Position numbers and translations under genes: made by a program. A model generated the notes under the pieces. It was given only the letters and a program-made list of their open reading frames with translations, did no database searches and was not told where the DNA came from. A DNA stretch of 63,466 bases, filler included. It is 4 parts of 4 records of this genome, joined end to end, with 100 filler letters (N's around TTAATTAATTAA, not from the genome) between each part and the next. Parts side by side here need not be neighbours in the genome. Positions count along the whole stretch, not along the records: positions 8,804 to 36,463 come from SRR20825019_2409; 3 more parts are not named here. One strand, written 5' to 3'. This document shows positions 2,261 to 54,066 of this stretch, in pieces (within the stretch, counting starts at the first letter, position 1; each line of letters starts with the position of its first letter).

Positions 2261-4570
2261 ATGAAATTAAAAAACATAACAACTGTAGTATTTGCTGGCC
2301 TTTTTGGGTTCTTAGCATTGGCTCAAGAAAATGGCGCTAAGTATGAGCAAGAAATTGAAGCGCTTATTAAAAAAATGACCGTAAAGGAAAAGGTGGGTCA
2401 AATGGCGCAAATTACCTTAGATGTAATTGGAAAAGGAAACGACCGTTACACAAGTTTTGAGCCTTTACAGCTTGATGAAAAAGAAGTTAAAAAGGCTCTT
2501 GGAGATTATCATATCGGGTCGGTTTTAAATACAGCAAATAATAGAGCTTTACCAAAAGAAAAATGGTATGAAATTATAAAAGAAATCCAAGATTTTTCAA
2601 TTAATAAAACTAGACTTGGAATCCCGAATATTTACGGAGTGGACGAAATACATGGGGCTACTTATACTGCAGGAGCAACTATGTTTCCTCAGCAAATAGC
2701 ACAAGGGGCTGCTAGAAACCCAGCTTTAACAAAACAAGGAGCAGCAATCACCGCTTATGAAACGCGCGCAAGTAATATTCCATGGTCTTTTTCTCCTGTT
2801 TTAGATTTGGCACTAGACCCAAGGTTTTCTAGAATGTGGGAGTCTTTTGGAGAAGATCCATATTTATGTTCGGTACTTGGAGTAGCAGCAATAAATGGGT
2901 ACGAAGGCGATGATAATAATATTTCCAATCCAACAAAGGTGGCTGTAAGTTTAAAACATTTTTTAGGATACCATGCAACAATATCTGGAAAAGACAGAAC
3001 CCCTTCTTACATTCCTGAGGATGCTTTGAGGGAATATCATCTTCCTGCTTTTGAGGCGGCTATAGCAGCTGGTGCTCATACAATTATGATTAATTCTGGA
3101 ATAATAAATGGAGTTCCTGTACATGCTAATTATGAATTATTGACCACACTTTTAAAAGAAGAGTTAGGGTTTAAAGGTTTAGTGGTTACCGACTGGGCAG
3201 ATATTGAAAATTTACATCGTAGAGACCGTGTTGCTGCTACCGATAAGGAGGCAATTATGTTGGCAATTAATGCAGGAATAGACATGTCTATGATTCCATA
3301 TAATTATGAGGTTTTTTGTGATGGTTTGGTGGAATTGGTTAATGAAGGAAAAGTTAAAGAGTCTCGTTTAGACGATGCAGTACGTAGGATTCTTAAAGTA
3401 AAATATGAACTTGGATTGTTTGAAACTCCAAATACAAACTATAAAGATTATCCTGAGTTTGGAAGTAAAACTCATGAAAAGGCTTCTTATGAAATGGCGG
3501 CTGAAGCCATTACTTTGTTGAAAAACGATTCAGGAATACTTCCGCTTAAAAAAGGAACAAAAGTATTGGTGGTTGGTCCTAATGCCAATTCTATGCGTAC
3601 ACTAAATGGAGCTTGGACATATTCTTGGCAAGGAGAGAAAACTCCAGAATTTGCTGCACAATACAATACAATTTTGGAAGCTGTTCAAAATGAAAATGGT
3701 AAAGAAAATACCACTTTTGTAGAAGGGGTTGCTTATAAAGATGGAGGGAGTTATTATGAAGAAGAGAAAAAAGATTTTGATAAAGCAATTGAAGAGGCTA
3801 AAAATGCAGAAGTAATCCTTCTTTGTTTAGGGGAAAACACATATACTGAAAAGCCAGGCGATTTAAACGATTTGTATCTTTCTGATTATCAAACAGAATT
3901 AGCTTTAGAGCTAGCAAAAACAGGAAAGCCTGTAGTTTTAATATTAAATGAAGGTCGCCCACGAATTATTTCTAAGTTTGAAAGAGAAACAAAAGCAATT
4001 GTACAAGCTTATTTGCCAGGAAATTTTGGAGGAGATGCTTTAGCAGATATTATTTTTGGGGATGTTAACCCTTCTGGAAAATTACCTTACACCTATCCAA
4101 GATATCCAAATGCAACTATTTCTTACATTCATAAACCTTCCGAAGAGCAGAAAAAAGCAGAAGGGGTTTATAATTATGAAGCAGATTACAATCCGCAATT
4201 TCGATTTGGAGATGGTTTGAGTTATACTACTTTTGAATTCAGCGCTTTAAAATTAAGTTCAAAAAACATAAAAAAAGGAGAAAATGTTGAGGTTTCTGTA
4301 GTTGTAAAAAATACAGGAAAAAGAGAAGGGAAAGAAGTGGTAGAATTATATACTTCAGATTTATATGCTAGCAGCGTAACTCCAGATGTTAAAAGGTTAC
4401 GCCGTTTCCAAAAAATAACTCTAAAAAGAGGAGAAAGCAAAACCGTAAAATTCACTTTAAATCCAAAAGATATGAGTTATTTTGGGCGTGAAGGAAATGA
4501 GATTTTAGAAGCTGGAGAGTTTGAAGTAATGATAGATAACTTGACAAGTAAATTTAAACTGACCCTCTAA
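2261..4570 (+). CDS. GH3 beta-glucosidase
   Basis: Signal peptide. Motifs EKVGQM, ESFGEDP, KHF, VVTDW (nucleophile), PSGKLPYTYP, and a C-terminal FnIII-like domain. Confidence 0.92.
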   Translation: MKLKNITTVVFAGLFGFLALAQENGAKYEQEIEALIKKMTVKEKVGQMAQITLDVIGKGNDRYTSFEPLQLDEKEVKKALGDYHIGSVLNTANNRALPKEKWYEIIKEIQDFSINKTRLGIPNIYGVDEIHGATYTAGATMFPQQIAQGAARNPALTKQGAAITAYETRASNIPWSFSPVLDLALDPRFSRMWESFGEDPYLCSVLGVAAINGYEGDDNNISNPTKVAVSLKHFLGYHATISGKDRTPSYIPEDALREYHLPAFEAAIAAGAHTIMINSGIINGVPVHANYELLTTLLKEELGFKGLVVTDWADIENLHRRDRVAATDKEAIMLAINAGIDMSMIPYNYEVFCDGLVELVNEGKVKESRLDDAVRRILKVKYELGLFETPNTNYKDYPEFGSKTHEKASYEMAAEAITLLKNDSGILPLKKGTKVLVVGPNANSMRTLNGAWTYSWQGEKTPEFAAQYNTILEAVQNENGKENTTFVEGVAYKDGGSYYEEEKKDFDKAIEEAKNAEVILLCLGENTYTEKPGDLNDLYLSDYQTELALELAKTGKPVVLILNEGRPRIISKFERETKAIVQAYLPGNFGGDALADIIFGDVNPSGKLPYTYPRYPNATISYIHKPSEEQKKAEGVYNYEADYNPQFRFGDGLSYTTFEFSALKLSSKNIKKGENVEVSVVVKNTGKREGKEVVELYTSDLYASSVTPDVKRLRRFQKITLKRGESKTVKFTLNPKDMSYFGREGNEILEAGEFEVMIDNLTSKFKLTL

Positions 4571-4611
4571 TTTAACCTACGAATTGGTCCCCCCGAACTA
4601 ATTTTAAGACA

Positions 4612-8803: not shown

Positions 8804-11428
8804 AAGGAAGCGCGCACGGAAGAGATTCCGTTCGTGGTTGCTCGGATCGTGCTACAGGATTTCACCGGTGTGCCTCTCCTGGTCGATCTCGCGGCGATGC
8901 GTGCTGCCGTGGAACGTCTCGGCAAGGATCCGAAGATCATCGAGCCGCTCGTGCCGGTTGATCTTGTGGTCGATCATTCCGTGCAGGTTGATTTCGCGGG
9001 CAGTGCGGAAGCGTTGAAGCAAAACCTCGAGTTGGAATTCACCCGCAATCGTGAGCGTTACCAATTCCTCAAGTGGGGGATGCAGGCTTTTGATACCTTC
9101 AAGGTCGTGCCTCCGGGCATCGGGATCGTTCACCAGGTGAATCTCGAGTATCTCGCCAAGGGCGTGCTCAATCAGGATTCCGTTTACTACCCCGACACGC
9201 TTGTCGGCACGGATTCGCACACGACGATGATCAACGGTCTCGGAATCGTGGGCTGGGGCGTCGGCGGGATCGAAGCCGAAGCCGGGATGCTTGGCCAACC
9301 GGTCTACTTCCTGACTCCTGATGTCGTGGGGGTTTACCTGACTGGTGCGTTGCGCGAAGGCGTGACGGCGACTGACCTTGCGCTGACGATTACCGAGAAA
9401 CTCCGTGCGGCCAAGGTCGTCGGTAAGTTTGTTGAATTTTACGGCCCCGGTGCCGCGGCGCTTCCAGTGGTGGATCGCGCGACGATTGCCAACATGGCGC
9501 CGGAATACGGTGCCACGATGGGCTTCTTCCCGATTGATGCTGAGACCACGAATTATCTCCGCGCAACGGGTCGCACCGACGAACAGGTCGCTACTTACGA
9601 AGCTTACTACAAGGCGCAAAACCTCTGGGGAATTCCACAGAAGGGGGATATCGAATATTCGGTCGATCTTGAACTCGATCTCGCCTCCGTGGTGCCCAGT
9701 GTGGCCGGTCCGAAGCGTCCTCAGGATCGCATCGTGCTTCCCGACCTGAAGGAGGCATTTACTTCGTCCCTGTCCCGTGCGGTCAATGACGCCGGTTTCG
9801 GCAAGAAACCCGAAGAACTCGGGAAGAAATTTGCGGTGGCGACGAGCGGGAAGGAAATTTTGCATGGCAGTGGCGGGAGCCAGGAATCGGTGTCGGCATC
9901 CGACGCCGAATCGAAGGGAACTAATCCCGCCACAGAGACCGAAATGGCGAACAACCGTCCCACTCCGGACGACGTCAATGGAGTGGCACCGAAAGTGGCT
10001 GGCGAGGTTGGCGACGGTTCCGTGCTGATCGCGGCGATCACCAGTTGCACCAATACTTCCAATCCGAGCGTGATGCTTGCGGCGGGGATTCTCGCGAAGA
10101 AAGCGGTCGAGAAGGGACTCACGGTTAATCCGATGGTGAAGTCTTCGCTCGCGCCGGGCTCGCGTGTGGTTACCGACTATTTGGAAAAGACCGGTCTGAC
10201 TCCTTACTTGGATCAGCTCGGCTTCCAAACGGTGGGTTATGGTTGCACGACTTGTATCGGTAATTCCGGTCCGCTCCATCCGGCGATCGAAGAAGCCGTC
10301 ACGAGCAACAATCTCGTGGCCGCCTCGGTGCTCTCCGGTAACCGCAACTTTGAAGCCCGGGTGCATCAGAACGTGCGGGCAAATTTCCTGATGTCGCCTC
10401 CGCTCGTGGTCGCCTTCGCTCTCGCGGGTCGCGTCGATATCGACATGGACAACGATCCGATCGGCAAAGACAAGGACGGCGCCGATGTTTATCTCAAGGA
10501 TATCTGGCCGAGCTTACAGGAAGTGCGTGATCAGATGCAGGCCGCCCTCAAACCCGAGGTCTTCCGCAAGCTCTACAAGGACTTCGCGGAGCAGAATCCG
10601 AAGTGGAACGAAATTCCTTCCACGACCGGTAACGTTTATGCCTTTGATGCCGATTCAACCTACATTCAGGAGCCTCCGTTCTTCACGGACTTCTCGATGA
10701 CGCCGGATGATATCAAGCCGATCACGGGTGCTCGTGCGCTCGGCGTATTTGGCGATTCCGTGACGACCGATCACGTGTCTCCGGCCGGTGCGATCAAGAA
10801 GGCTTCTCCCGCGGGTGAATATCTCGTGGCGAACAATGTGGAGTTTGCCGATTTTAATTCCTACGGCTCGCGTCGGGGCAATGACCGGGTGATGACCCGC
10901 GGCACCTTCGCGAATGTGCGGATCAAGAATCTCATGCTGAATGGCAAAGAAGGTGGTTACACCCTCGGACCTGACGGTGAGGAGACCTCGATTTACGATG
11001 CTTCGATCGCCTACCAGCAGCAGGGCACGCCTCTTGTCGTGATCGCCGGTCAGGAATACGGCACCGGTTCGTCTCGTGATTGGGCTGCCAAAGGCACCAA
11101 TCTTCTCGGCGTGAAAGCGGTCGTGGCGCAGAGCTTTGAGCGGATTCACCGTTCCAATCTCGTCGGCATGGGGGTGCTGCCTCTCCAATTCAAGGAAGGC
11201 GATTCCGCGGCGAGCCTGAAGCTTGATGGCTCTGAGACCTATGATGTTGTTGGACTCGATGCTTCGGTGAAACCTCAACAGGATCTCACTTTGCGGATCA
11301 CCCGGAAAAATGGTGATGCACAGGAAGTCTCGGTGCGCTGTCGGATCGATACGCCGATCGAAATCGATTACTACCAGCACGGGGGAATTCTCCATTACGT
11401 GCTCCGTCAAATCGTCGCACGTAACTAA
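8804..11428 (+). CDS. acnA: Aconitate hydratase A (5'-truncated)
   Basis: The frame is open from the contig edge ([22 protein letters not shown]). Motifs [47 protein letters not shown]. Confidence 0.96.
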
Positions 11429-16273: not shown

Positions 16274-17506
16274 ATGTCGTCAGACTCTGAAAATTATTCC
16301 GCTCCTTTGGATCGCTTTTCTTTACCGGATCGCGCTGGTCACTTCGGTGAATACGGTGGCGTTTATGTGCCGGAAACGTTGATGACCGCTCTGCAGGATT
16401 TGGAGCGCGAGTATTTGGCGGCGAAGGAAGATCCGGCCTTTCAAACCGAGTTGCGTCAGCATTTGGCGGAGTTTGCGGGCCGGCCGACCAAATTGTATTT
16501 TGCCAGTCGGCTCACCGAGCACTGCGGTGGGGCGAAGATCTATTTTAAGCGCGAGGATTTGCTTCATACCGGCGCGCACAAAATTAACAACGCGATCGGT
16601 CAGGCCCTGTTGGCGAAACGCATGGGGAAGAAGCGGGTCATTGCGGAAACGGGTGCTGGTCAGCACGGTGTAGCGACGGCGGCGGTCTGTGCGAAATTCG
16701 GTCTCGAATGCGTGGTTTACATGGGTGCGCATGATATGGAGCGTCAGGCATTGAATGTGTTTCGGATGCGTTTGATGGGAGCCGAAGTGCGTGGAGTTGA
16801 GGCGGGGCAAAAAACGCTCAAGGAAGCCATCAATGAGGCCATGCGTGACTGGGTGACCAATGTGCGTTCGACCCACTACATCCTCGGCACAGCCTATGGT
16901 TCGCATCCTTATCCCATGATGGTGCGTGATTTTCACCGCGTAATTGGACAAGAGGCAAAGGAGCAGATTCTCGAGCGGGAAAACCGCCTGCCGGATGAGC
17001 TTGTCGCCTGCGTGGGTGGTGGCAGTAACGCGATCGGCCTGTTTTTCGATTTTCTCGAGGAACCCAATATCAAGATGACGGGCGTTGAAGCCGGTGGCTT
17101 GGGGATCGCCCGAGGTGAGCACGCCGCACGATTCGAAGGCGGTAAGCTGGGCGTGTTGCAAGGATGTAAAACCTACGTGCTGCAGGATCCGGAGGGGCAG
17201 ATCGAGTTGACTCATTCTGTTTCCGCCGGACTCGATTACGCGGCGGTGGGGCCAGAACACGCGTTCTACCGTGAACGCGGTCGGATCGATTTCGCCTATG
17301 CGAAGGACGATGAAGTTCTGGAAACATTCCAACTGGTGTCCCGGCTCGAAGGAATCATTCCCGCACTCGAAAGCACGCATGCCTTGGTGCACGGCATCAA
17401 ACGCGCGAAGGCCCTCGATAAGGACAAGATCGTGATCGTGAATCTATCCGGTCGGGGAGACAAAGATGTGCAGCAAGTGTCCGATTTGCTGAAGCAGTCG
17501 GAATAA
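16274..17506 (+). CDS. trpB: Tryptophan synthase beta chain
   Basis: Motifs [19 protein letters not shown] (PLP Lys), [30 protein letters not shown]. Confidence 0.97.
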
Positions 17507-17536
17507 ATCCCAAACGCCAAGAAGGCAAATTTCAAA
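17500..17536 (+). repeat. Left arm of imperfect inverted repeat (CAAA-periodic, 7-7-8-7 units) flanking the four-helix-bundle gene
   Basis: GGAATAAA TCCCAAA CGCCAAG AAGGCAAA TTTCAAA; overlaps the trpB stop codon. Confidence 0.8.
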
Positions 17537-17544
17537 GAAAACGC

Positions 17545-17901
17545 ATGGCCGACAAACCAAGAGACTTGGAGGGTCGGACGGCCAATTTTGCTGAGGATGT
17601 TCGAAACTTTGTCAGAAGTTTGCCGCGAACCATCGCAAATATTGAAGATGTAAAACAGCTGGTTCGTTCCTCAGGGTCGGTGGCGGCCAATTGCATCGAG
17701 GCCAATGAAGCTTTGGGTGAGAAAGATCGCGTGATGCGATTCAGAATTTCCCGTAAGGAGGCGAAAGAGAGCCAACTCTGGCTGCGACTATTGCATATGA
17801 GCAACGATGAGAATTTGAAGGCTGAACAGCAGAAGTTATGGCAAGAGGCGCATGAGCTAAAACTGATCCTGACGGCTATCATTAATAAATTGGAAAAATG
17901 A
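17545..17901 (+). CDS. Four helix bundle protein (23S rRNA-IVP / TIGR02436-like)
   Basis: Motifs DLEGRTANFA, QLVRSSGSVAANCIEA, RISRKEAKESQLWL, ELKLIL. Confidence 0.9.
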   Translation: MADKPRDLEGRTANFAEDVRNFVRSLPRTIANIEDVKQLVRSSGSVAANCIEANEALGEKDRVMRFRISRKEAKESQLWLRLLHMSNDENLKAEQQKLWQEAHELKLILTAIINKLEK

Positions 17902-17924
17902 TACGGTTCCGACTCCGGATTGTA

Positions 17925-17961
17925 TTTGGCCTTTGGTCATTTGATCTTTGAGATTTATTCC
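17925..17961 (-). repeat. Right arm of the inverted repeat (TTTG-periodic)
   Basis: TTTGGCC TTTGGTCA TTTGATC TTTGAGA TTTATTCC, ending on the base immediately before the yicC ATG. Confidence 0.8.
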
Positions 17962-18834
17962 ATGAAAAGTATGACCGGCTACGGGCGCGCCATCGCGTCT
18001 CTCGAGAACTCGACTCTGACGATTCAGGTCAACTCCGTGAATCGAAAGACGTTGGATCTGTCGGTGTCGCTACCGTCCGCCTGGGATGATTTGGAGTCTG
18101 CCGTTCGGGATGCGGTCAGAGGTGTCGCCGCGCGCGGTAAGGTGCATGTGCGAATCGAACTCACCAGTGAAGGCGGGGTGACCTCCCTGATCTGGGACGA
18201 GAAGGCCGTGAGCGCGACATTACAGAAGCTGCAAGCCACCGCAGAGCGGCAGGGGATCGTGTTTGATCCGTCCTCCGGGTTGTTGTGGCAGGTGGTCAAT
18301 GCTCATCGTCAAAGCAGTGAGACGGTCGATGCTGAGACGGCGAGTGAGATCGTATTGAAGACACTGCAGGAGGCTCTCGATGCTTTTGCGGCGATGCGCA
18401 GCACCGAAGGAGCCGCCTTGTTGGAGGACTTTGAAAAGCGACTCGCGATCCTGCAGGACTTGACGAAGACGATCGCGGAACGAGCGCCCGAGGTCGCCCC
18501 GGCTCATCGCGATACGCTGCTGAAACGTCTCAATGAAGGGAATCTTGAGCTCGATCTCAACGATGAGCGGGTCTTGAAAGAAATCGCGTTCTTTGCCGAT
18601 CGCTGTGATGTGACCGAGGAACTGACACGTCTGCAAAGCCACTTTGATCAATTTGGGAAGTTGCTGCGTAGTGAACACGAAATCGGCCGCAAAGCTGAGT
18701 TTCTCCTTCAGGAAATTGGTCGCGAGGTGAATACCATCGGGAGCAAAGCAAACGACCTGACGATTGCGCGTCAGGTCATTGAGATGAAAAACGAACTGGA
18801 TCGCGTGCGCGAGCAGATCGCCAACGTGGAATAA
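17962..18834 (+). CDS. yicC: YicC/YloC family endoribonuclease
   Basis: Starts MKSMTGYGR. Motifs SVNRK, RGKV, DVTEELTRL, GRKAEFLLQEIGREVNTIGSKA, REQIANVE. Confidence 0.93.
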   Translation: MKSMTGYGRAIASLENSTLTIQVNSVNRKTLDLSVSLPSAWDDLESAVRDAVRGVAARGKVHVRIELTSEGGVTSLIWDEKAVSATLQKLQATAERQGIVFDPSSGLLWQVVNAHRQSSETVDAETASEIVLKTLQEALDAFAAMRSTEGAALLEDFEKRLAILQDLTKTIAERAPEVAPAHRDTLLKRLNEGNLELDLNDERVLKEIAFFADRCDVTEELTRLQSHFDQFGKLLRSEHEIGRKAEFLLQEIGREVNTIGSKANDLTIARQVIEMKNELDRVREQIANVE

Positions 18835-36563: not shown

Positions 36564-36785
36564 CCCCCCCCCCCCCCCCCCCGGAGCCCCCGCGGAGTTC
36601 ACAACCAGTGGCAGTGCCGCGAATGACGGAGCGCGCGCAGCGCGGCCGACCGGGACCGGCCGCCTTCTTTCGGTATTTGGCTCATGAAGGTGTCAGTGGG
36701 ACTCTGGCGAACGGTTGTGGTTGCAAGACTTCAAACGCGTTAAGTAGTTGTACAGCCAAACTGCGGAAAGACAGTGTCAACAATA

Positions 36786-46333: not shown

Positions 46334-49300
46334 TTAGTTGGTTGGCTGGTTCGGAGACGTGGGAGTCTCGCCGCCAGTGGAGTTGGCTTCACTCTCGCCG
46401 CCAGAGTCCTTCTTGCCCTTGAGGTTGGAGTAGGCCTTCATCAAGTACTTGCTCCTCTGCTTCTTCTGGTTCTGCTCCGCCTCCGGATTGAACAACAACT
46501 GCCGCTTGCTGGCGTTGGACTTGGGCTCCGAGTTGATGGTGTTGTTGATGCGAGCAAAGTCACTTCCGCGTGGGCTCTCACCAAAGGCATATAGAGTCCT
46601 GGTGCGCGGGGTCATGTGCGCATTGTTCGATGGCGTGGCGGCGTTGCCGCCCGAGGAGCGAACGGGAGACATGTAGACGTTTCCAGTGCTGCCCACCCTC
46701 TTAGGGGACATGAACTGGGGCATTCTCGCGAGCATGGCGACATGCCCGGCACCAACATTGTTCAGCTGCGTCACCGGCATCCTCGACGGGCCGTCGCTCT
46801 GACCGCCCTCATTGGTCTCCTGGGCCGAAGCCTGCGAGGCGGAGTAGTTGGTGATGTGAGACTTGACGAGGGGAACATACACATTGTTGTAGAACTTGAT
46901 GATGTCCACAGGATCATCGCTCTCACGGGCACCCCGGATACCACGGAACTGAGGCCGCAACGGACGGTACTGGGGCTGGAGTTTGTACGCTTCCGTAATG
47001 CGCTTGAAAGTTAAGGAAGACTCATTGTGGACACGTCCGAGGCCATACAGGGAGCACATGATGATCACATCCATATCACGGTTCATGACGAGTTCGCGCC
47101 TCTCCTCCAGGCAGTACTTGAACAGAGTATATGTATGCTGCATGAGATGGGTGCACGAGAGGCGGTGGCACAGCTCGAAAATGCGCACCGAGGCAAGATG
47201 AAGAACCTTCTGAGCAAAACTCTTCAGCAGACTCGTGTGCGGGGTCTTTTGGATGGTCTCGTCCTGCAGTAATGGAGCGGGTCAGTATTAACATGGCAAC
47301 ATAGACACCAACACGAAACCAAGGGGAGAGAATAGGATGGGAGCATCAATTGGTTGTTAGGTATCAGCAAAGACGAATCTCTGATTGGAGTGATTTGTCA
47401 TTGTTTTTGGTATTTTTTCATTTGCTTCCATCCAAACACAGACACAAATAAGGATGGATTCCTCACCTGCTCGGAGCCGGCCTCTGCGGTTCCAGAGAAA
47501 GACTGTAAGAAGCGCTTGAACGCGTTCTTGTTGCCGGCCACCTGGAGAACTTGCACGAGGGTGTCAGATGACTTCCACATGTGCTCGCTCACAAGGCGGT
47601 GCTCGACGCTTTGGAGATGCCGGCGGATGGGGCGGGGGGTTCCGTTGGGCATGTGCAGAACAAAATAAGTGATGACCTTGAAGAGATCCCATGCAGTCAA
47701 GGAAAACCAGTCCAGGGCGGCGGGGGACTCAACAGAGAATACAACCCGTTGGCTATACTGAACCACCTCAGCAGCACAACCAACCACTGCCTTGTGGAAG
47801 GTATCGGATGAGATCATGTTGGTAAGCGCGGCGCGGGCCTTTTCCTCAGTGGCGTCTGGGAGTCCCTTCTGCCTCTTCTCCTCCGATTCCATCAACCGCT
47901 CAAGCACATGAACATAAAGCTTTGCGATCAGGGTGCGGCGGTGGTCTTGCGCATCCGAACTGGTCGGCACCTTGCTCAAATACTTCTCCATCAGCTCAAC
48001 GAACGTATCCTTGGGGTTCTTTGAGAACAGGGCAAAGTAGCCAAGGAGCTTCTCGCTAGCACAATCCGGGAGAGGGGTTGTCGCGCTGCCCAGGGTGCTG
48101 TTCAGCCACTCGGTGCATTCAAGGGCCGCGTCAACAACATCCATTGCACCACCGCCACGAGCAGGGCTGCCACGGGCAGCCGGCGCCGGGCTCATCCACG
48201 GCTGGAACGAAGCATTCTCTGTACGCACAGTCGCATTACTGGGGTGGAGTGGGGACGGGAGAAGCTGAGTGGGAACGGTCGAGCTCCTCTCACGAACAGC
48301 AGCGTCGAACCTTGCAGATAGGTTGCGCGCGGAGCTGCGCGGAATGTACTGGGGGGTGGACCCTGTCTTCTTCGGGGTGGCGGGTGTTCCTGGGACCGCC
48401 ACGCCATGGCTTTCAATGTAGAGTCGCTCGTCAAAGTCTGCCTTGGTCAAGTAAACCATATCATACAACTGGCGAAGCTCCGCCACGGCGGCATCGAGGA
48501 AACGCTCCATCAAGCCATCCCATACATAGAAATCCTGCCCGCCGTTGTTCCCAAGCACTGAAGGGGAGGTGATCTTCCTGAAGCTTTCCTTCTGTGTAAA
48601 AAGTTAGCAAAGCTGAAAACCGCACCGCGAGGTTAGGCTGCACGTACCTCATACAAAAACTTGTGGAGCGCACCCTCCTTACTCTCCAGATCTGCCACAC
48701 TGAGCTTGCACAGTCGACTCAAACCCACGATCGACTTCTCCTCTTTTCCGCTCAGGCGGGAGTACTTCCCCGCATGAAGAACCATGAAATGGACAGAAGC
48801 CATCAGCAGCTGGTAGTTCTGCATCATATCGGTCTCGTGACCAGCAAGCATGGAGTCCTTTGACCACACGAACAAAAGCCACCCGAATCTCTTGAGTGCA
48901 TCCAAGAAGGAAATCTTTGTCTTATCCTCCAAGGTTGTGGATGAGGTGGGTGCCGGGAAAACGTTGTCGAAAACGGACAAGTATTTGGTTTTCATGGCCT
49001 GCCCGATAACAAACTTGGCCTCAAGCGAACGAATCTTCTTCTCAAAATTGACGGGGGCGTTGATGCGCTTCACCGCGAAAAGAGACCTCAGCGTCTCGAA
49101 AAAGCGCTTCTCTTCAATATTTGCCTCACGGACAAGCTGTGTGATGGTTACACTCGTTCCATTGACAACCCCCCCTCCAACAGTACGAAGACCCTTCTTG
49201 TGCCCTGCAATGAACATACATGCCACCATCCATGGAACCCGGTGGTCATGGAATGAAGGAATATGTTCTCCACCGCTCCGAGCCGGTGTGCCGCGCTGAG

Positions 49301-49673
49301 GGGTGTTGCCCAAGGAAGCCAGCACCGACGGGGCAGAGAAGAAAGACTCGTCAACTTCGCGAGGGTGCCTCACAAGGTCACTGAACATCGTCCATGCAAG
49401 GTCCTTTGTGTCCGCGTCGAGGTTGACTCCGGCGGCAATGCTGTCAAACTCGCCTCTGTCTGTGCTCAATATCTTGCTGTACAGCTCCTCGCCCACCTAC
49501 GTCCTACACGTTAGTTTCCCACAAAGACACCAAACCATAAAAAGAACACCCACCGCTGCACCGTTGCCAGCAGGAGCTGATCCCGGGCGACTGGGAGAGG
49601 GAGAAGGTAGAGGAGGCTTTCGCATCGGAGATGGTTTTGGGGTTGGCGACGCCGGAACGCGCGGTGGATCCAT
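46334..49673 (-). CDS. RBR: Retinoblastoma-related pocket protein, 4 exons (about 1007 aa)
   Basis: Exons 49673-49554, 49496-48648, 48591-47467, 47263-46334, all phase 0. RbN (FGWLLFV), pocket A (FHKAVVGCAAEVV; HLQSVEHRL..W), pocket B (RDMDVIIMCSLYG; DIIKFYNNVY), C-terminal VYMSP, MTPRT and KRQLLF. Confidence 0.9.
47364..47421 (-). ncRNA. Candidate intronic guide RNA (C/D-snoRNA-like) in RB intron 3
   Basis: 14-nt GACAAATCACTCCA antisense to a conserved 18S segment (recalled), followed by CAGA and then CTGA. The C box is non-canonical and the boundaries are uncertain. Confidence 0.35.
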
Positions 49674-50092: not shown

Positions 50093-50592
50093 TTATCCCA
50101 GAGAACCTGTCTAAGGCAAAGAAAAAATAATCATCAGACTATAATGACCATGAATATCTACATAAATATCATAAATATTCACTTTTTCATTGAAAAATAA
50201 GTAATCTCTACATGGAAAACCCTGGCTTCAGCCCTACCCAGCCTGATGAGTCACCCTCTAGTAACTCTCTTCGACCCTCACCTCTGTTCAATGACCATTG
50301 CGTCTCACCCGGCAGTCACCCCACGCATGCGCCCCCAGCTCGGCCGCACTTCGGCCGGCGGGGGCGGCGAGGGCGGCCCATTCCCTTGCACTAGTCGACG
50401 ACCGTGACCCGCAGTGCCCCCAAGGGCCCGCACGATCAGCCGGCCAGAACGCCCGTGCAGTCACGGCTGGTCCGTCCCACGGCACGCCCCAAGTTCTCAG
50501 TGCTCGCTGCTTAGTGTCCCTAGAGTACGTGTATTAAATGGTTGTACTTCACATTACACCTATAGACGCTGCCTTTGCGTCGCTCATCGAGG

Positions 50593-53500
50593 ATGAGTGA
50601 CAGTAGTGGCGACGAGAAAGCAGAAAGCCCTGTCCGGGAGCCGGAAAAGGGATCAGATAGGGAGGAGAAGCCGAAGAAGGAGAAGCACTCGAAGAAGCGC
50701 GACATATCTGACGACGAAAATGAGGAGCGGCCCAAGAAGAAAACAAAGAAGAGGAAGAAACGTGAAAAATTAACGGGAGCTTCTTTCCTTGAGCTCGAGG
50801 CTGAGGTTGATGACGAAGATGAGGAGGACGAGTATGACGAGGGTGAAGACGGCGTCTCCGAGTTGGAGGAAGAGGTCCATGAGAGCTTGGGTGAGCGCGC
50901 TCGACTTCACAGCAAGGTGGAAGCTGGATTCTCGAAGCAGGCGGATACTTTGAAAATGAACGACAAACTGGCCGATCTCGAGAGGAGATACGCCCAGCAA
51001 GGTTCCGACGACGACGATGACGACGTAGTCCGCAGTGATGACGAGGAAGGATACAAGCGGAGAGACCGTGGAGGGGACAGGATTCTTGCCGACGAGGACG
51101 AAGCTACAGATGGCATCGACAAAGCTCGTCTCCTTCCTGGGGTCCGTGACCCTAAACTGTGGATGGTGCGTGTGAAGCCGGGTGCCGAGAAGGCCCTCTG
51201 TATTCGCATGTTCCAGAAGTCTTTTGACCTTCAAGGGACGCCCGAAGCATTGAAGATTAAGAGCGTGGTTGCGCCCGAAAATGTCAAGGGTTGCATCTAT
51301 GTCGAAGCCGAGAAAGAGGTTGACGTGCGCAATGCCTGCTATGGGATGAGAGATATGTTTAGTTTCGATGTCAAGATCGTCCCCATCAAGGAAATGACGC
51401 AGGTTTTGGAATTCAGGCCGACTCGGACAAAGATAGAGAAGGGGATGTGGGTACGGTGCCGGACAGGAGCCTACAAGGGCGATGTTGGACGCGTGTACGA
51501 TGTTGTGGATGGCCGTGACAAGGTCGTTGTGCAACTTGTCCCGCGTATCGACTACGACCAGCTCGTCAAGGACGGATCTGAACGGAAGAAGAAGCCAGGA
51601 AAGCCGCCGCAGAAGATGTTCAATGTTGATGAGTTCACCAGCCGCGGAGGTCAGTATCAGATGAAGCGTAATGAGCTCGGTGAGCAGTTCTATGTCGTTG
51701 ACGGCGCCAAGTGGTTCAAGGAGGGATACTTGTACAAAGACATGAAGTCTCGCAGCCTTGAGCCTGGGGTTCAGCCTTCTCTCGACGAGATTCAGAGGTT
51801 TGGTCTTGAGGATGAAGAGGGCGAGGAGGAGACCAACCTAGCCTTGTCCGTGAACCGCACGAAGCCCTCCTTTGTTCTCAACGATTGCATTCGCGTGACT
51901 CACGGGGACCTGAAGAACTTGACAGGTAGGATCGCGGCTGTCGATCACGCTAACAAGATTGTCCGCGTGAAGGCCGACGAGACATTTGGCCTTTCTAGTG
52001 AGGTTGAATTCGACCTCGACGCCATCCAGAAGTACTTCAAGGTCGGCGACCACGTCAAGGTCATTGCCGGAAGCTACAAAGACGAGACTGGTATGGTCGT
52101 GAAGGTGGATTCCGACGTCTGCGTCCTCTACACCGATCTGACAAAGAAAGAAATTAAGGTGTTTGTCACTGATGTAGTGGAGACATCGGAGGTTGCTACC
52201 GGGCAGGAATCCCTTGGCCAGTATGAGTTGTTTGACCTTGTGCAGATTGACCCGTATACCCTTGGCGTCATTGTGAAGGTGGAGAGCGATTCTTTCCAGG
52301 TGCTGGACAACATGGGTAACGTCAAGCATATGTTGTTGACGGAAATGGGAACCAAGAAAGATTCGAAGAGGACCACGCTGGTCGATAATGAGCAGAATAG
52401 CATATGTGTCAACGACGTGGTGCGCTGCATTGAGGGAGATCACAAGGGGCGCCAGGGCACCATCCGGCATTTGTACCGCACGTGGGTTTGGCTGTACTCG
52501 CGTGATGTGATGGACAACAATGGAATCTTTGTCGTGCGTGCCCGACAGGTCCTGGCACAGAATAAGAAGAGCAGCGGGCCGGGCATGAACAGCCCGGCGG
52601 GTGGGTTCGACAGGCTTCAGTCCCCGTCCATGAGGGGCGGCATGCAGCAGAGGGGAGGGATGAGTCCGCGGGGAGGCATGGGCGGCGGTCGCGGGGGTCG
52701 CCAATCGCACCCTTTGGAGAACAAGACCATTCGGGTGACGAAGGGTCCGTACAAGGGCATGATTGGCCTTGTGAAGAACGGGAATGACACACATGTACGT
52801 GTGGAGCTCCATGCCAAGAGCAAGGCCATCACCGTACCTGTCCAAATGGTGAGACAAGAGGGTGGCCAGAGCACCTTTGGTGGAGGTGGCCGGCAGGACT
52901 ACGCCCCCGGAGATGGCTACCACATGGGCGCGGCCACACCCATGCACGCCGGTGCGCAGACTCCTATGTGGCGCCCCAATGATGACTACGGGTCCAGCCG
53001 TTCACCATGGGGTGGTGTGGGATCGCGCACCCCCATGCGCGATGACGATGGCAGCCGCACTCCGATGAGGGATGGCGGTCGCTCGTCCGCCCGTGACGAC
53101 ATCTGGAACCCTAACGTTCCACAGACCCCGGCCCGTGACCCTAACCAGGGCTACGATGACGACCCCGGGACCCCCGCCTACGGCGGGGCAACACCTGGAG
53201 GCTACAATATGCGGACGCCGGGAGATAGGTGGGGCAACACCCCTGGTGGAGCCACACCCTACGGTGCTCCGAGCCCCGGCTTTGGCAACATGGACCGTGG
53301 TGCCCCAACACCCGGAGGGGCGCCGACGCCCGGTGGCCACTACGGAGGGTGGGATGCACATAATGCGCACACGCCTGGCATGGGCGCAATGACCCCTGGC
53401 ATGGGTGCCCCCACGCCGGGTGGCATGATGGCACACACCCCGGGGATGGCCGCCCACACTCCTGGGATGGCCGCACCGACACCAGGGATGGGTGCGCCGA

Positions 53501-54066
53501 CCCCTGGGGGCATGGGAGCGCCGACTCCAGGCGGCATGAGCGCTCCGACGCCCGGCGGCATGAGCGCGCCTACGCCGGGCGGTGGCGGAATGGGAGCCCC
53601 CACACCCGGAATGGGCGCCCCCACGCCCGGCATGGGAGCCCCCACGCCCGGCATGGTAGCCCCGACGCCAGGCTATGACCACAACTCATTTACCCCTGGC
53701 TATGGAGGAACTTATGCCGACCAAGCCGCTCCTACTCCTGGTGCGGGATATGCGAATGTCGAGCCGTGGTGTTCTCCCAACATTGTGGTTGAGGTGGAGG
53801 CGTCTGGCGAGCAGGGTACCGTCGTTAATGTGGATGGAAACAACGTGACCATCAGCGTCAATGGCCGTTCTTCCTCGCACGCCGCGGACCAACTGAAAAA
53901 GGTTGACCCCCAGAAGAACGACCTGGTGCGTATCATTAAGGGCGAAAGCACGGGCAAGACCGGTAAACTTGTTGGTGTGGACTCTGGTGATGGTATCGTA
54001 CAGATGGACGTGGACAATGATATTAAGATTATCCCCATTGACGAGCTGGCCAAGCTGGCTAGGTAG
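50593..54066 (+). CDS. SPT5: Transcription elongation factor SPT5 (intronless CDS, about 1157 aa)
   Basis: Acidic N-terminus, NGN domain (LLPGVRDPKLWMVRV; KGCIYVEA), multiple KOW motifs, TP-rich CTR repeats and C-terminal KOWs. Confidence 0.95.
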   Translation: MSDSSGDEKAESPVREPEKGSDREEKPKKEKHSKKRDISDDENEERPKKKTKKRKKREKLTGASFLELEAEVDDEDEEDEYDEGEDGVSELEEEVHESLGERARLHSKVEAGFSKQADTLKMNDKLADLERRYAQQGSDDDDDDVVRSDDEEGYKRRDRGGDRILADEDEATDGIDKARLLPGVRDPKLWMVRVKPGAEKALCIRMFQKSFDLQGTPEALKIKSVVAPENVKGCIYVEAEKEVDVRNACYGMRDMFSFDVKIVPIKEMTQVLEFRPTRTKIEKGMWVRCRTGAYKGDVGRVYDVVDGRDKVVVQLVPRIDYDQLVKDGSERKKKPGKPPQKMFNVDEFTSRGGQYQMKRNELGEQFYVVDGAKWFKEGYLYKDMKSRSLEPGVQPSLDEIQRFGLEDEEGEEETNLALSVNRTKPSFVLNDCIRVTHGDLKNLTGRIAAVDHANKIVRVKADETFGLSSEVEFDLDAIQKYFKVGDHVKVIAGSYKDETGMVVKVDSDVCVLYTDLTKKEIKVFVTDVVETSEVATGQESLGQYELFDLVQIDPYTLGVIVKVESDSFQVLDNMGNVKHMLLTEMGTKKDSKRTTLVDNEQNSICVNDVVRCIEGDHKGRQGTIRHLYRTWVWLYSRDVMDNNGIFVVRARQVLAQNKKSSGPGMNSPAGGFDRLQSPSMRGGMQQRGGMSPRGGMGGGRGGRQSHPLENKTIRVTKGPYKGMIGLVKNGNDTHVRVELHAKSKAITVPVQMVRQEGGQSTFGGGGRQDYAPGDGYHMGAATPMHAGAQTPMWRPNDDYGSSRSPWGGVGSRTPMRDDDGSRTPMRDGGRSSARDDIWNPNVPQTPARDPNQGYDDDPGTPAYGGATPGGYNMRTPGDRWGNTPGGATPYGAPSPGFGNMDRGAPTPGGAPTPGGHYGGWDAHNAHTPGMGAMTPGMGAPTPGGMMAHTPGMAAHTPGMAAPTPGMGAPTPGGMGAPTPGGMSAPTPGGMSAPTPGGGGMGAPTPGMGAPTPGMGAPTPGMVAPTPGYDHNSFTPGYGGTYADQAAPTPGAGYANVEPWCSPNIVVEVEASGEQGTVVNVDGNNVTISVNGRSSSHAADQLKKVDPQKNDLVRIIKGESTGKTGKLVGVDSGDGIVQMDVDNDIKIIPIDELAKLAR
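53299..53742 (+). repeat. Coding tandem array of 18 TPG units (mostly MxAPTPG) in the SPT5 C-terminal repeat region
   Basis: Counted from the translation. Synonymous positions vary between units. Confidence 0.85.

Follow-up and report, generated by a model that had tools for sequence, protein, structure and literature searches.

Two kinds of element described so far come close to the one considered here. The first is the intervening sequence (IVS) of 23S rRNA. That of Coxiella burnetii, in the part of the published account on which we draw, is 428 nt long and carries an S23p open reading frame (ORF); the inverted repeats at its ends make up a 28-bp stem that is cut by RNase III, two to three tandem GACAGAT heptamers, variable in number among strains, precede the ATG, and one strain has a 176-bp deletion in the ORF (PMC4990558). 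The second kind comprises intergenic heptamer direct repeats (short tandemly repeated repetitive sequences, STRR, or TAACTGA type), which lie next to start codons in Beggiatoaceae, cyanobacteria and Bacteroidetes and whose indels come in steps of 7; the accessible part of that paper makes no mention of the four-helix/S23 gene family (PMC4679880). Genes of this family are also on record, in the available portions of two further sources, in cas loci, for example between cmr3 and cmr2, where their presence was taken as functional association (PMC3936711), and in rRNA insertions of bacteria of the candidate phyla radiation (CPR) (bioRxiv 10.1101/2024.02.27.582315). Here we describe a gene of the same family (PF05635/TIGR02436) that lies between trpB and yicC in a 63,466-nt stretch of DNA (hereafter, the window) and has on its two sides an inverted pair of degenerate heptamer arrays, the arms. 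We consider it likely that this segment is an eroded IVS-type cassette inserted into what was once a trpB/yicC overlap. The parts of the locus are as follows.

16274..17506, plus strand: trpB, tryptophan synthase beta (TIGR00263, 613 bits; PALP domain)
17500..17536, plus strand: left arm, degenerate 7-nt units, with TAAA/CAAR words at 17504, 17511, 17518, 17526 and 17533
17507..17961, plus strand: putative insert of 455 nt relative to the ancestral 4-nt trpB/yicC overlap (from the gap table and the alignment of L012 with L013)
17545..17901, plus strand: cargo gene, 118 aa, PF05635/TIGR02436 (from profiles, predicted model and Foldseek)
17902..17924, plus strand: short local hairpin that separates the cargo stop from the right arm (predicted by co-folding of the flanks)
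17925..17961, plus strand: right arm, 7-nt units, with YTTG/TTTA words at 17925, 17932, 17940, 17947 and 17954
17962..18834, plus strand: yicC, YicC/YloC-family endoribonuclease (TIGR00255, 200 bits; PF03755, PF08340)

Relatives of the locus were collected in one YicC genome scan, which gave 80 loci (designated by L numbers), 40 of them with trpB directly upstream of yicC. The window's own genome lies outside this panel, in which the best YicC identity is 79%. At 24 of the 40 junctions the two genes overlap by 4 nt (ATGA). These empty sites include the nearest relatives of the window, L001 and L002 (79% YicC identity), L003 and L006, as well as the distant Opitutales L071 and L072. A family gene occupies the junction only in the window and, among the 40, in L007, L012, L024 and L041, the contig of the last starting within the left arm. 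In L008, the gap between trpB and yicC measures 141 nt and holds both arms together with the first ~11 codons of the family gene. Its arms align word for word with those of the window on both sides while the spacer bases differ, and we read it as an internally deleted remnant of the cassette. In a tree built from TrpB and YicC (40 rows), the five or six filled sites require 5 changes: L001 and L002, both empty, together form the sister group of the window (support 100), and the filled L007 and L012 likewise have empty sisters, L006 and L013 respectively. L012 and L013 are ~90% identical on either side of the insert; the two sequences diverge at the final ~8 trpB codons and realign at the yicC ATG. 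Altogether, the empty ATGA sites, the scattered filled sites and the L012/L013 breakpoints indicate that the cassette is an insertion into a formerly translationally coupled junction, where it may have arrived repeatedly or may spread as an allele by recombination.

The insertion appears to have affected the end of trpB as well. The last ~9 codons of the window's TrpB (about 17478-17506, ...VSDLLKQSE*) are unlike the QVAKILGxxx* tail of empty sites, and altered tails (LLKQ..., LLTKE..., LLKKQ...) are found at filled and remnant sites in general; only L024 has the ancestral tail, plus one codon. The left boundary of the insert is uncertain by ~30 nt because of the alteration of the trpB tail. 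On the other side, yicC starts with the ATG at 17962, and its MKSMTGYG N-terminus (ATGAARAG... in the DNA) is conserved in all relatives. The left arm ends 8 nt upstream of the cargo ATG. The trpB stop codon (TAA, 17504-17506) is inside the left arm, and the right arm ends on the base preceding the yicC ATG, as already reported in an earlier note on this DNA. In L007, L012, L041 and L061, too, the arms border on the stop upstream and on the start downstream; those of L024 are 17-20 nt distant from both.

That earlier note had raised the idea of an IVS-like or transposase-less mobile cassette and had pointed to trpB-yicC junctions of related Opitutaceae as the place to look for an empty site. 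Such sites exist, closest relatives included, and with 24 of 40 junctions empty, scattered fills and the L008 remnant the idea gains support. No transposase, integrase or reverse transcriptase domain was found among the window's 51 ORFs of at least 90 aa.

Further observations were made at the same junction in other relatives. In L012 (9586-9947) the family gene is broken in frame: tblastn matches residues 23-115 only, with a stop after ~20 codons, either because the copy is decaying or through an assembly error. The trpB-yicC gaps of L021 and L055 measure 115 and 96 nt and are preceded by the K-type TrpB tails of filled sites. In L021, the sequence preceding the yicC ATG (..GTTACTTCCCCC) resembles that of L041 and L012. 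Both gaps are probably fully degraded cassettes.

The bracketed layout is not confined to trpB-yicC. Nineteen family genes were examined, 6 from Verrucomicrobiota and 13 on plasmids of Nostocales and Bacteroidota (these 13 were analysed out of 15 records that tblastn retrieved from the plasmid collection). All 19 have 7-nt repeats in their flanks, the repeat unit and the number of units both varying between copies. Opitutaceae arms are made of CAAA/TTTG units in the window and L008, CAAGGA/CTTG in L007 and L012, and AAATCCC/GGGATTT in L024 and L041. Arrays flank 13 of 13 plasmid copies and are clearly inverted in 12, L087 being ambiguous; examples are ATTCAAA (four units) with TTTGAAT (four to five), TAATTCG (four) with TTACGAA (four), GTCGGAR with YTCCGAC, and GTCGCAA (four) with CTTGCGA (more than 30). 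In Nostocales the arrays are perfect, with a lag-7 similarity of 1.00. When the inverted-repeat score was computed for 14 genes, own arms gave a mean of 18.2 and foreign arms 9.4, a difference matched by none of 100000 permutations. Since own arms match each other while units differ between copies, the two arms covary by repeat unit. For 15 of the 19 genes, the complementarity of the arms lies above the 99th percentile given by 2000 random spans. The left array of each copy is the reverse complement of that copy's own right array, and in three phyla such bracketing is characteristic of the gene family. The flanks of other TIGR02436 genes, to which the earlier note had directed attention, thus carry the inverted 7-nt arrays that it anticipated.

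A hidden Markov model built from 120 close homologues of the cargo retrieved only the junction copies and a weak match in L061. The latter (4210-4611) is a divergent but true family member (Pfam E 4e-21) located between gmk and coaBC and provided with its own inverted arms. Other placements were noted on plasmids. In Nostoc (L081, 1195-1551) and Anabaena (L082, 1195-1542), cas2 and cas1 are separated by a heptamer-flanked family gene that is on the opposite strand, and in Chondrinema (L086, 1132-1488) one lies between the adaptor and permease genes of a resistance-nodulation-division (RND) efflux operon. These placements look like operon-junction insertions rather than functional partnerships. 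The Chondrinema units are of the CAGT/ACTG type and seem to include TCAGTTA, the reverse complement of TAACTGA.

Evidence of movement was also obtained away from trpB-yicC. Comparison of two Nostoc loci, one filled (L083) and one empty (L089), shows that an arm-gene-arm insert of ~505 nt, with an 11-nt direct repeat (TGGAGTTGGGT) at its two ends, interrupts in L083 an ORF which L089 has intact. Between L083 and L084, 76% homology extends from arm to arm only, in different surroundings. The putative duplications are of unequal length: that of L083 measures 11-16 nt and that of L024 possibly 6-7 nt. Several Nostoc flagelliforme copies sit within larger duplications and are thus uninformative on the ends of the element. 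A second junction, gmk|coaBC, is empty in L073 and holds the armed family gene in L061, while inverted heptamer pairs without an ORF are present in L059, L060 and L063. In L066 (11671-12096) the same junction contains a 141-aa PDDEXK_3 gene (E 2.6e-39; PD-(D/E)XK nuclease superfamily) with CGCTAAT-type heptamers upstream and one complementary unit overlapping its stop codon. PDDEXK_3 nucleases may therefore be a second kind of cargo for a heptamer-armed vehicle.

More generally, a count over 1.28 Mb of related DNA gave 37 strict heptamer arrays. Most of them adjoin housekeeping genes, for example lspA, gmk or rpsI, and for 20 an inverted partner is present within 700 nt. Heptamer arrays were also seen directly 3' of yicC (yicC-lspA or yicC-gmk), several of them inverted and without an ORF, at these positions:

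L018: 10896-11075
L022: 10895-11024
L020: 1765-1794
L032: 1991-2030
L056: 10952-10987
L059, L060 and L063: about 10904-10948

Repeats thus flank yicC on both sides; the loci were chosen via yicC and many are close kin, so that no enrichment can be inferred.

Identification of the genes rests on profile matches and, for the cargo, on structure prediction. The cargo protein scores 44 bits against PF05635 (E 2.9e-11; cut-off 33.8) and 68.1 bits against TIGR02436 (cut-off 24), and it matches 2rld_A in sequence with an E value of 2.3e-7. The AlphaFold model (pLDDT 91.6) has four long helices arranged as a four-helix bundle. The top PDB matches returned for it by Foldseek are the S23-family structures 2RLD (TM 0.79), an entry with 5 chains, and 2GSC (TM 0.77). 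Avd, the accessory protein of diversity-generating retroelements (DGRs), follows with TM 0.70 for 4DWL and 0.70-0.75 across 4DWL and 8UB7, at 14% identity. The identities given in the earlier note (trpB, an IVS-protein gene of the four-helix-bundle family, the YicC endoribonuclease) and the relatedness to Avd therefore hold. The name of the cargo family, 23S rRNA IVS protein, is taken from Pfam; the family is very large, 7996 of 8000 scored candidates matching PF05635/TIGR02436. No match to it was found in the phage collection and none in PADLOC. At the locus itself no sigma-70-like promoter was predicted, a single weak terminator-like hairpin was found at 17927-17939, and no Rfam family matched within 17300-18100.

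The arms of the window copy, 37 nt each, form 25 Watson-Crick and 4 G-U pairs when aligned in register, with 14 of the outer 15 nt paired, and the spacing of their words is mirrored (7-7-8-7, counting the TAAA at 17504 and the TTTA at 17954). A recount agreed with the earlier note on arm lengths, pairing and word spacing. None of 5000 shuffles of the flanks attains 25/37, and 8 of 5000 attain the local score of 14; among random gene-sized spans of related natural DNA, 5 of 2997 reach that score. Across the 63-kb window, the right arm alone has a lag-7 self-similarity of at least 0.6 (0.64-0.67). Tandem Repeats Finder (score 30) reported no array at either arm, and a general repeat search listed a shifted 12-nt pair only, without the 37-nt arm pair. 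The 15-mer at the arm ends does not occur elsewhere in the window at up to 2 mismatches and hence is not a dispersed repeat there. The statistics of the window copy alone are borderline, so that the case for the feature comes mainly from the related loci, and on that comparison the arm-gene-arm arrangement is real.

Folding gave a mixed picture. The optimal fold of 17495-17970 has an outer 10-bp helix (17500-17509/17952-17961) and a 7-bp helix; its z score is -2.43 and 1 of 100 shuffles folds equally well. In the slightly longer context 17480-17985, the outer in-register helix has a probability of ~0.1 and the inner periodic part of ~0, and a shifted 12-bp helix (17527-17538/17945-17956) predominates with a probability of 0.8-0.9. 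The energy of the in-register duplex is -18.6 kcal/mol versus -22.3 for the optimum of the arms. The earlier note had envisaged a register-matched 37-bp periodic stem that loops out the whole gene. The looping-out stands, being a feature of every predicted fold, and the outer 10 bp do close in the shorter span, but this helix is mostly lost in the longer context, and the long periodic stem is not supported by these models. The closing helices, whether the 10-bp or the shifted 12-bp one, are short for RNase III. Relative to shuffles, co-folding of the arms gave z scores of -2.9 for the window, -2.0 for L012, -2.0 for L041 and -2.8 for L061.

The explanation that we favor is that the segment belongs to a class of small selfish cassettes built like ORF-bearing 23S rRNA IVSs, in which a PF05635/TIGR02436 gene is set between degenerate heptamer arrays that are inverted relative to each other. 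Arms and gene would move as a unit, either as DNA or via an RNA copy, by means of machinery provided in trans. Once transcribed into the polycistronic RNA, the arms would pair and loop out the cargo, which would render the insertion tolerable within an operon much as the terminal stem, which RNase III cuts, does in rRNA IVSs. The window copy would be old and eroded, hence its weak stem. Several points weigh against this explanation. We know of no mobilising enzyme for the cassette. No target duplication is recognisable at the window junctions, where the trpB tail is replaced and not merely interrupted; the replacement could instead reflect homologous recombination that exchanged alleles. Many heptamer arrays of related DNA adjoin ordinary genes: no family gene is present among 55 ORFs beside 35 other arrays, the only member in the set of 56 scanned being that of L061, which was included on account of its profile match. 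Most arrays therefore lack such a cargo. In the window, five inverted pairs attain 25/37 at gaps of 200-700 nt, so that the pairing count by itself is not rare; the score of 14 obtained with 200-nt flanks is at, not above, the 99th percentile of the 2000 controls, a level that three other family genes (L007, L061 and L087) do not exceed either; and the left arm is barely periodic (lag-7 similarity 0.46-0.48). In co-folding the arms gain only modestly over shuffles: against -2.9 for the window, the z score is -0.3 in L007 and -1.0 in L024. Finally, comparison of duplex energies on the plus and minus strands gave mixed signs, with no strand (G-U) bias toward RNA.

The lack of a plus-strand G-U bias and the unfavourable energy of the in-register stem would also fit arms that work at the DNA level only, as terminal inverted repeats or recombination sites for an outside enzyme or as targets of replication slippage and of recombination among heptamer arrays, RNA pairing being a by-product. 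The 11-nt direct duplication at the Nostoc insert and the homology of L083 and L084 that stops at the arms are consistent with this, as are L008, which resembles a miniature inverted-repeat transposable element (MITE) in being deleted inside with both arms kept, and the frequency of ORF-less inverted pairs (20 of the 37 strict arrays). Against it, a unit that varies between copies is hard to square with one sequence-specific transposase, the lengths of the putative duplications are unequal, and the related rRNA IVSs, in the portion of the Coxiella report used here, function as RNA stems that RNase III cuts (PMC4990558). We regard a role restricted to DNA as possible but doubtful. The heptamers might alternatively be ordinary regulatory or structural intergenic repeats of the STRR/TAACTGA type beside a resident gene, with nothing mobile. 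Repeats of that sort are known next to start codons in the three groups named above (PMC4679880, in its accessible part), the 37 strict arrays are mostly near housekeeping genes, and in the window one arm ends just before the cargo ATG and the other at the yicC ATG. This would leave unexplained the empty ATGA junctions of the closest relatives, the scattered distribution, the filled and empty Nostoc pair and the reverse complementarity of the two arrays of one gene, and we find it quite improbable.

The coupling model of the earlier note, whereby the 37-bp register-matched stem would join the trpB stop to the yicC start, a ribosome terminating at trpB would melt the stem and restore translational coupling, and an oligomer of the protein would bind the heptamers, draws on a junction that was truly coupled in the ancestor (ATGA, 24/40). 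The outer 10-bp helix in the optimal fold of 17495-17970 would juxtapose TAA and ATG, arms abut stop and start in four other loci (L007, L012, L041 and L061), words and not spacers are kept between the window and L008, as repeated binding sites would predict, and 2RLD has five chains. However, the in-register helix has the low probabilities given above in slightly longer context, its energy is poorer than the optimum of the arms, and in L024 the arms stand off from both stop and start. The model is improbable in our view. As for the complementarity being a chance product of two low-complexity spacers, A/C-rich and T/G-rich, that flank an ordinary gene, it is true that five window pairs attain 25/37, that the score does not pass the 99th percentile, and that dinucleotide shuffles of flanks of complementary composition pair well too. 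Nonetheless, no flank shuffle in 5000 attains 25/37, the architecture is found in 19 of 19 family genes, 15 of them above the 99th percentile, and the arms are kept word for word in L008. A chance origin of the arms is contradicted by these comparative data and must be considered highly improbable.

The cassette explanation can be widened. Tentatively, and with odds that we would put at well under even, PF05635 cassettes of operon junctions, ORF-bearing rRNA IVSs, ORF-less inverted heptamer hairpins and at least some STRR/TAACTGA arrays might constitute one mobile superfamily. The ends of its members may be inverted arrays of freely varying heptamers, and it may span at least Verrucomicrobiota, Cyanobacteriota and Bacteroidota. 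In such a superfamily, the arms would pair in RNA and the insert would be bypassed or cut out, an RNA-level process that would account for tolerance both inside helices of rRNA and at junctions of coupled genes. As a nucleic-acid chaperone, the Avd-like cargo would recruit in trans either a polymerase or a nuclease; in view of the Avd fold and of the unequal lengths of the duplications, this might be a reverse transcriptase. The same vehicle could carry different cargos as well, PDDEXK_3 nucleases for example.

To our knowledge, the origin and spread of rRNA IVSs and of cyanobacterial tandem heptamers have gone without explanation for decades. If both belong to one cassette system, the PF05635/TIGR02436 family, to which no function is assigned, would acquire a biological context, and the filled and empty pairs in culturable Nostoc and Opitutaceae would allow direct testing. 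The cas "associations" (cmr3-cmr2, cas2-cas1) may then be operon-junction insertions instead of partnerships. For annotation, such inserts call for caution in that they alter the 3' end of the gene upstream and abolish the coupling of gene pairs that overlap.

Other features of the window were recorded. On the minus strand, 46337-49496 contains three consecutive ORFs with eukaryote-type retinoblastoma domains (DUF3452, RB_A, RB_B plus Rb_C), and on the plus strand, 50575-54063 encodes a 1163-aa SPT5-like protein (Spt5-NGN, KOW4/5/7_SPT5) with 21-24-nt tandem repeats at 53431-53669. The occurrence of these ORFs amid bacterial surroundings could be due to horizontal transfer or to chimeric assembly. 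The G+C content rises from ~34% to ~55% near 8-10 kb and is ~40-42% after 58 kb; judging by these steps, the window may be composite. The cassette is well within the 55% G+C block, where the order trpB, yicC, lspA is as in the Opitutaceae relatives. A run of 19 C residues at 36564-36582 adjoins an 11-nt direct repeat.

How does the cassette compare with known elements? Like a MITE, it has inverted ends and no internal transposase, a deleted derivative (L008) and one filled/empty pair with a direct duplication; unlike a MITE, its ends are short-repeat arrays that vary by copy, its cargo is a conserved small protein, and no duplication is visible at the window copy. We know of no partner transposase for a heptamer-armed cassette. 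With Avd of DGRs the cargo shares the four-helix-bundle fold but only 14% identity, and no reverse transcriptase was found among the 51 window ORFs; template and variable repeats were not searched for. In common with STRR/TAACTGA repeats, going by the available part of their description, the arms consist of tandem 7-nt units that are intergenic and often end beside a start codon, and the degenerate arms of the window do comprise at least three head-to-tail units in intergenic DNA. Those repeats are direct, whereas here an inverted pair surrounds a cargo gene. Judging by the title of a 1997 paper by Vioque, STRR arrays reportedly occur inside the RNase P RNA gene. Our literature search found no description of inverted heptamer arrays around this family outside rRNA; its coverage of subscription journals was thin, which makes this weak evidence.

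The closest resemblance is to the 23S rRNA IVS (Coxiella; Leptospira type), for which the comparison is with the sections of the Coxiella account cited at the outset. The sites differ, the window insert being at a protein-gene junction, trpB-yicC, and not in helix 45 of 23S rRNA, and so does the quality of the ends, imperfect in the window (25/37) and near-perfect in the 28-bp Coxiella stem. Cutting by RNase III is a feature of the Coxiella IVS, while the window cassette is known from sequence and folding only. In other respects the two are alike: they are similar in size (428 versus ~455 nt), their cargo comes from the same family, the ORF lies within terminal inverted repeats with tandem heptamers directly before its ATG, variable in number, both kinds include deleted or ORF-less variants, and both turn up sporadically.

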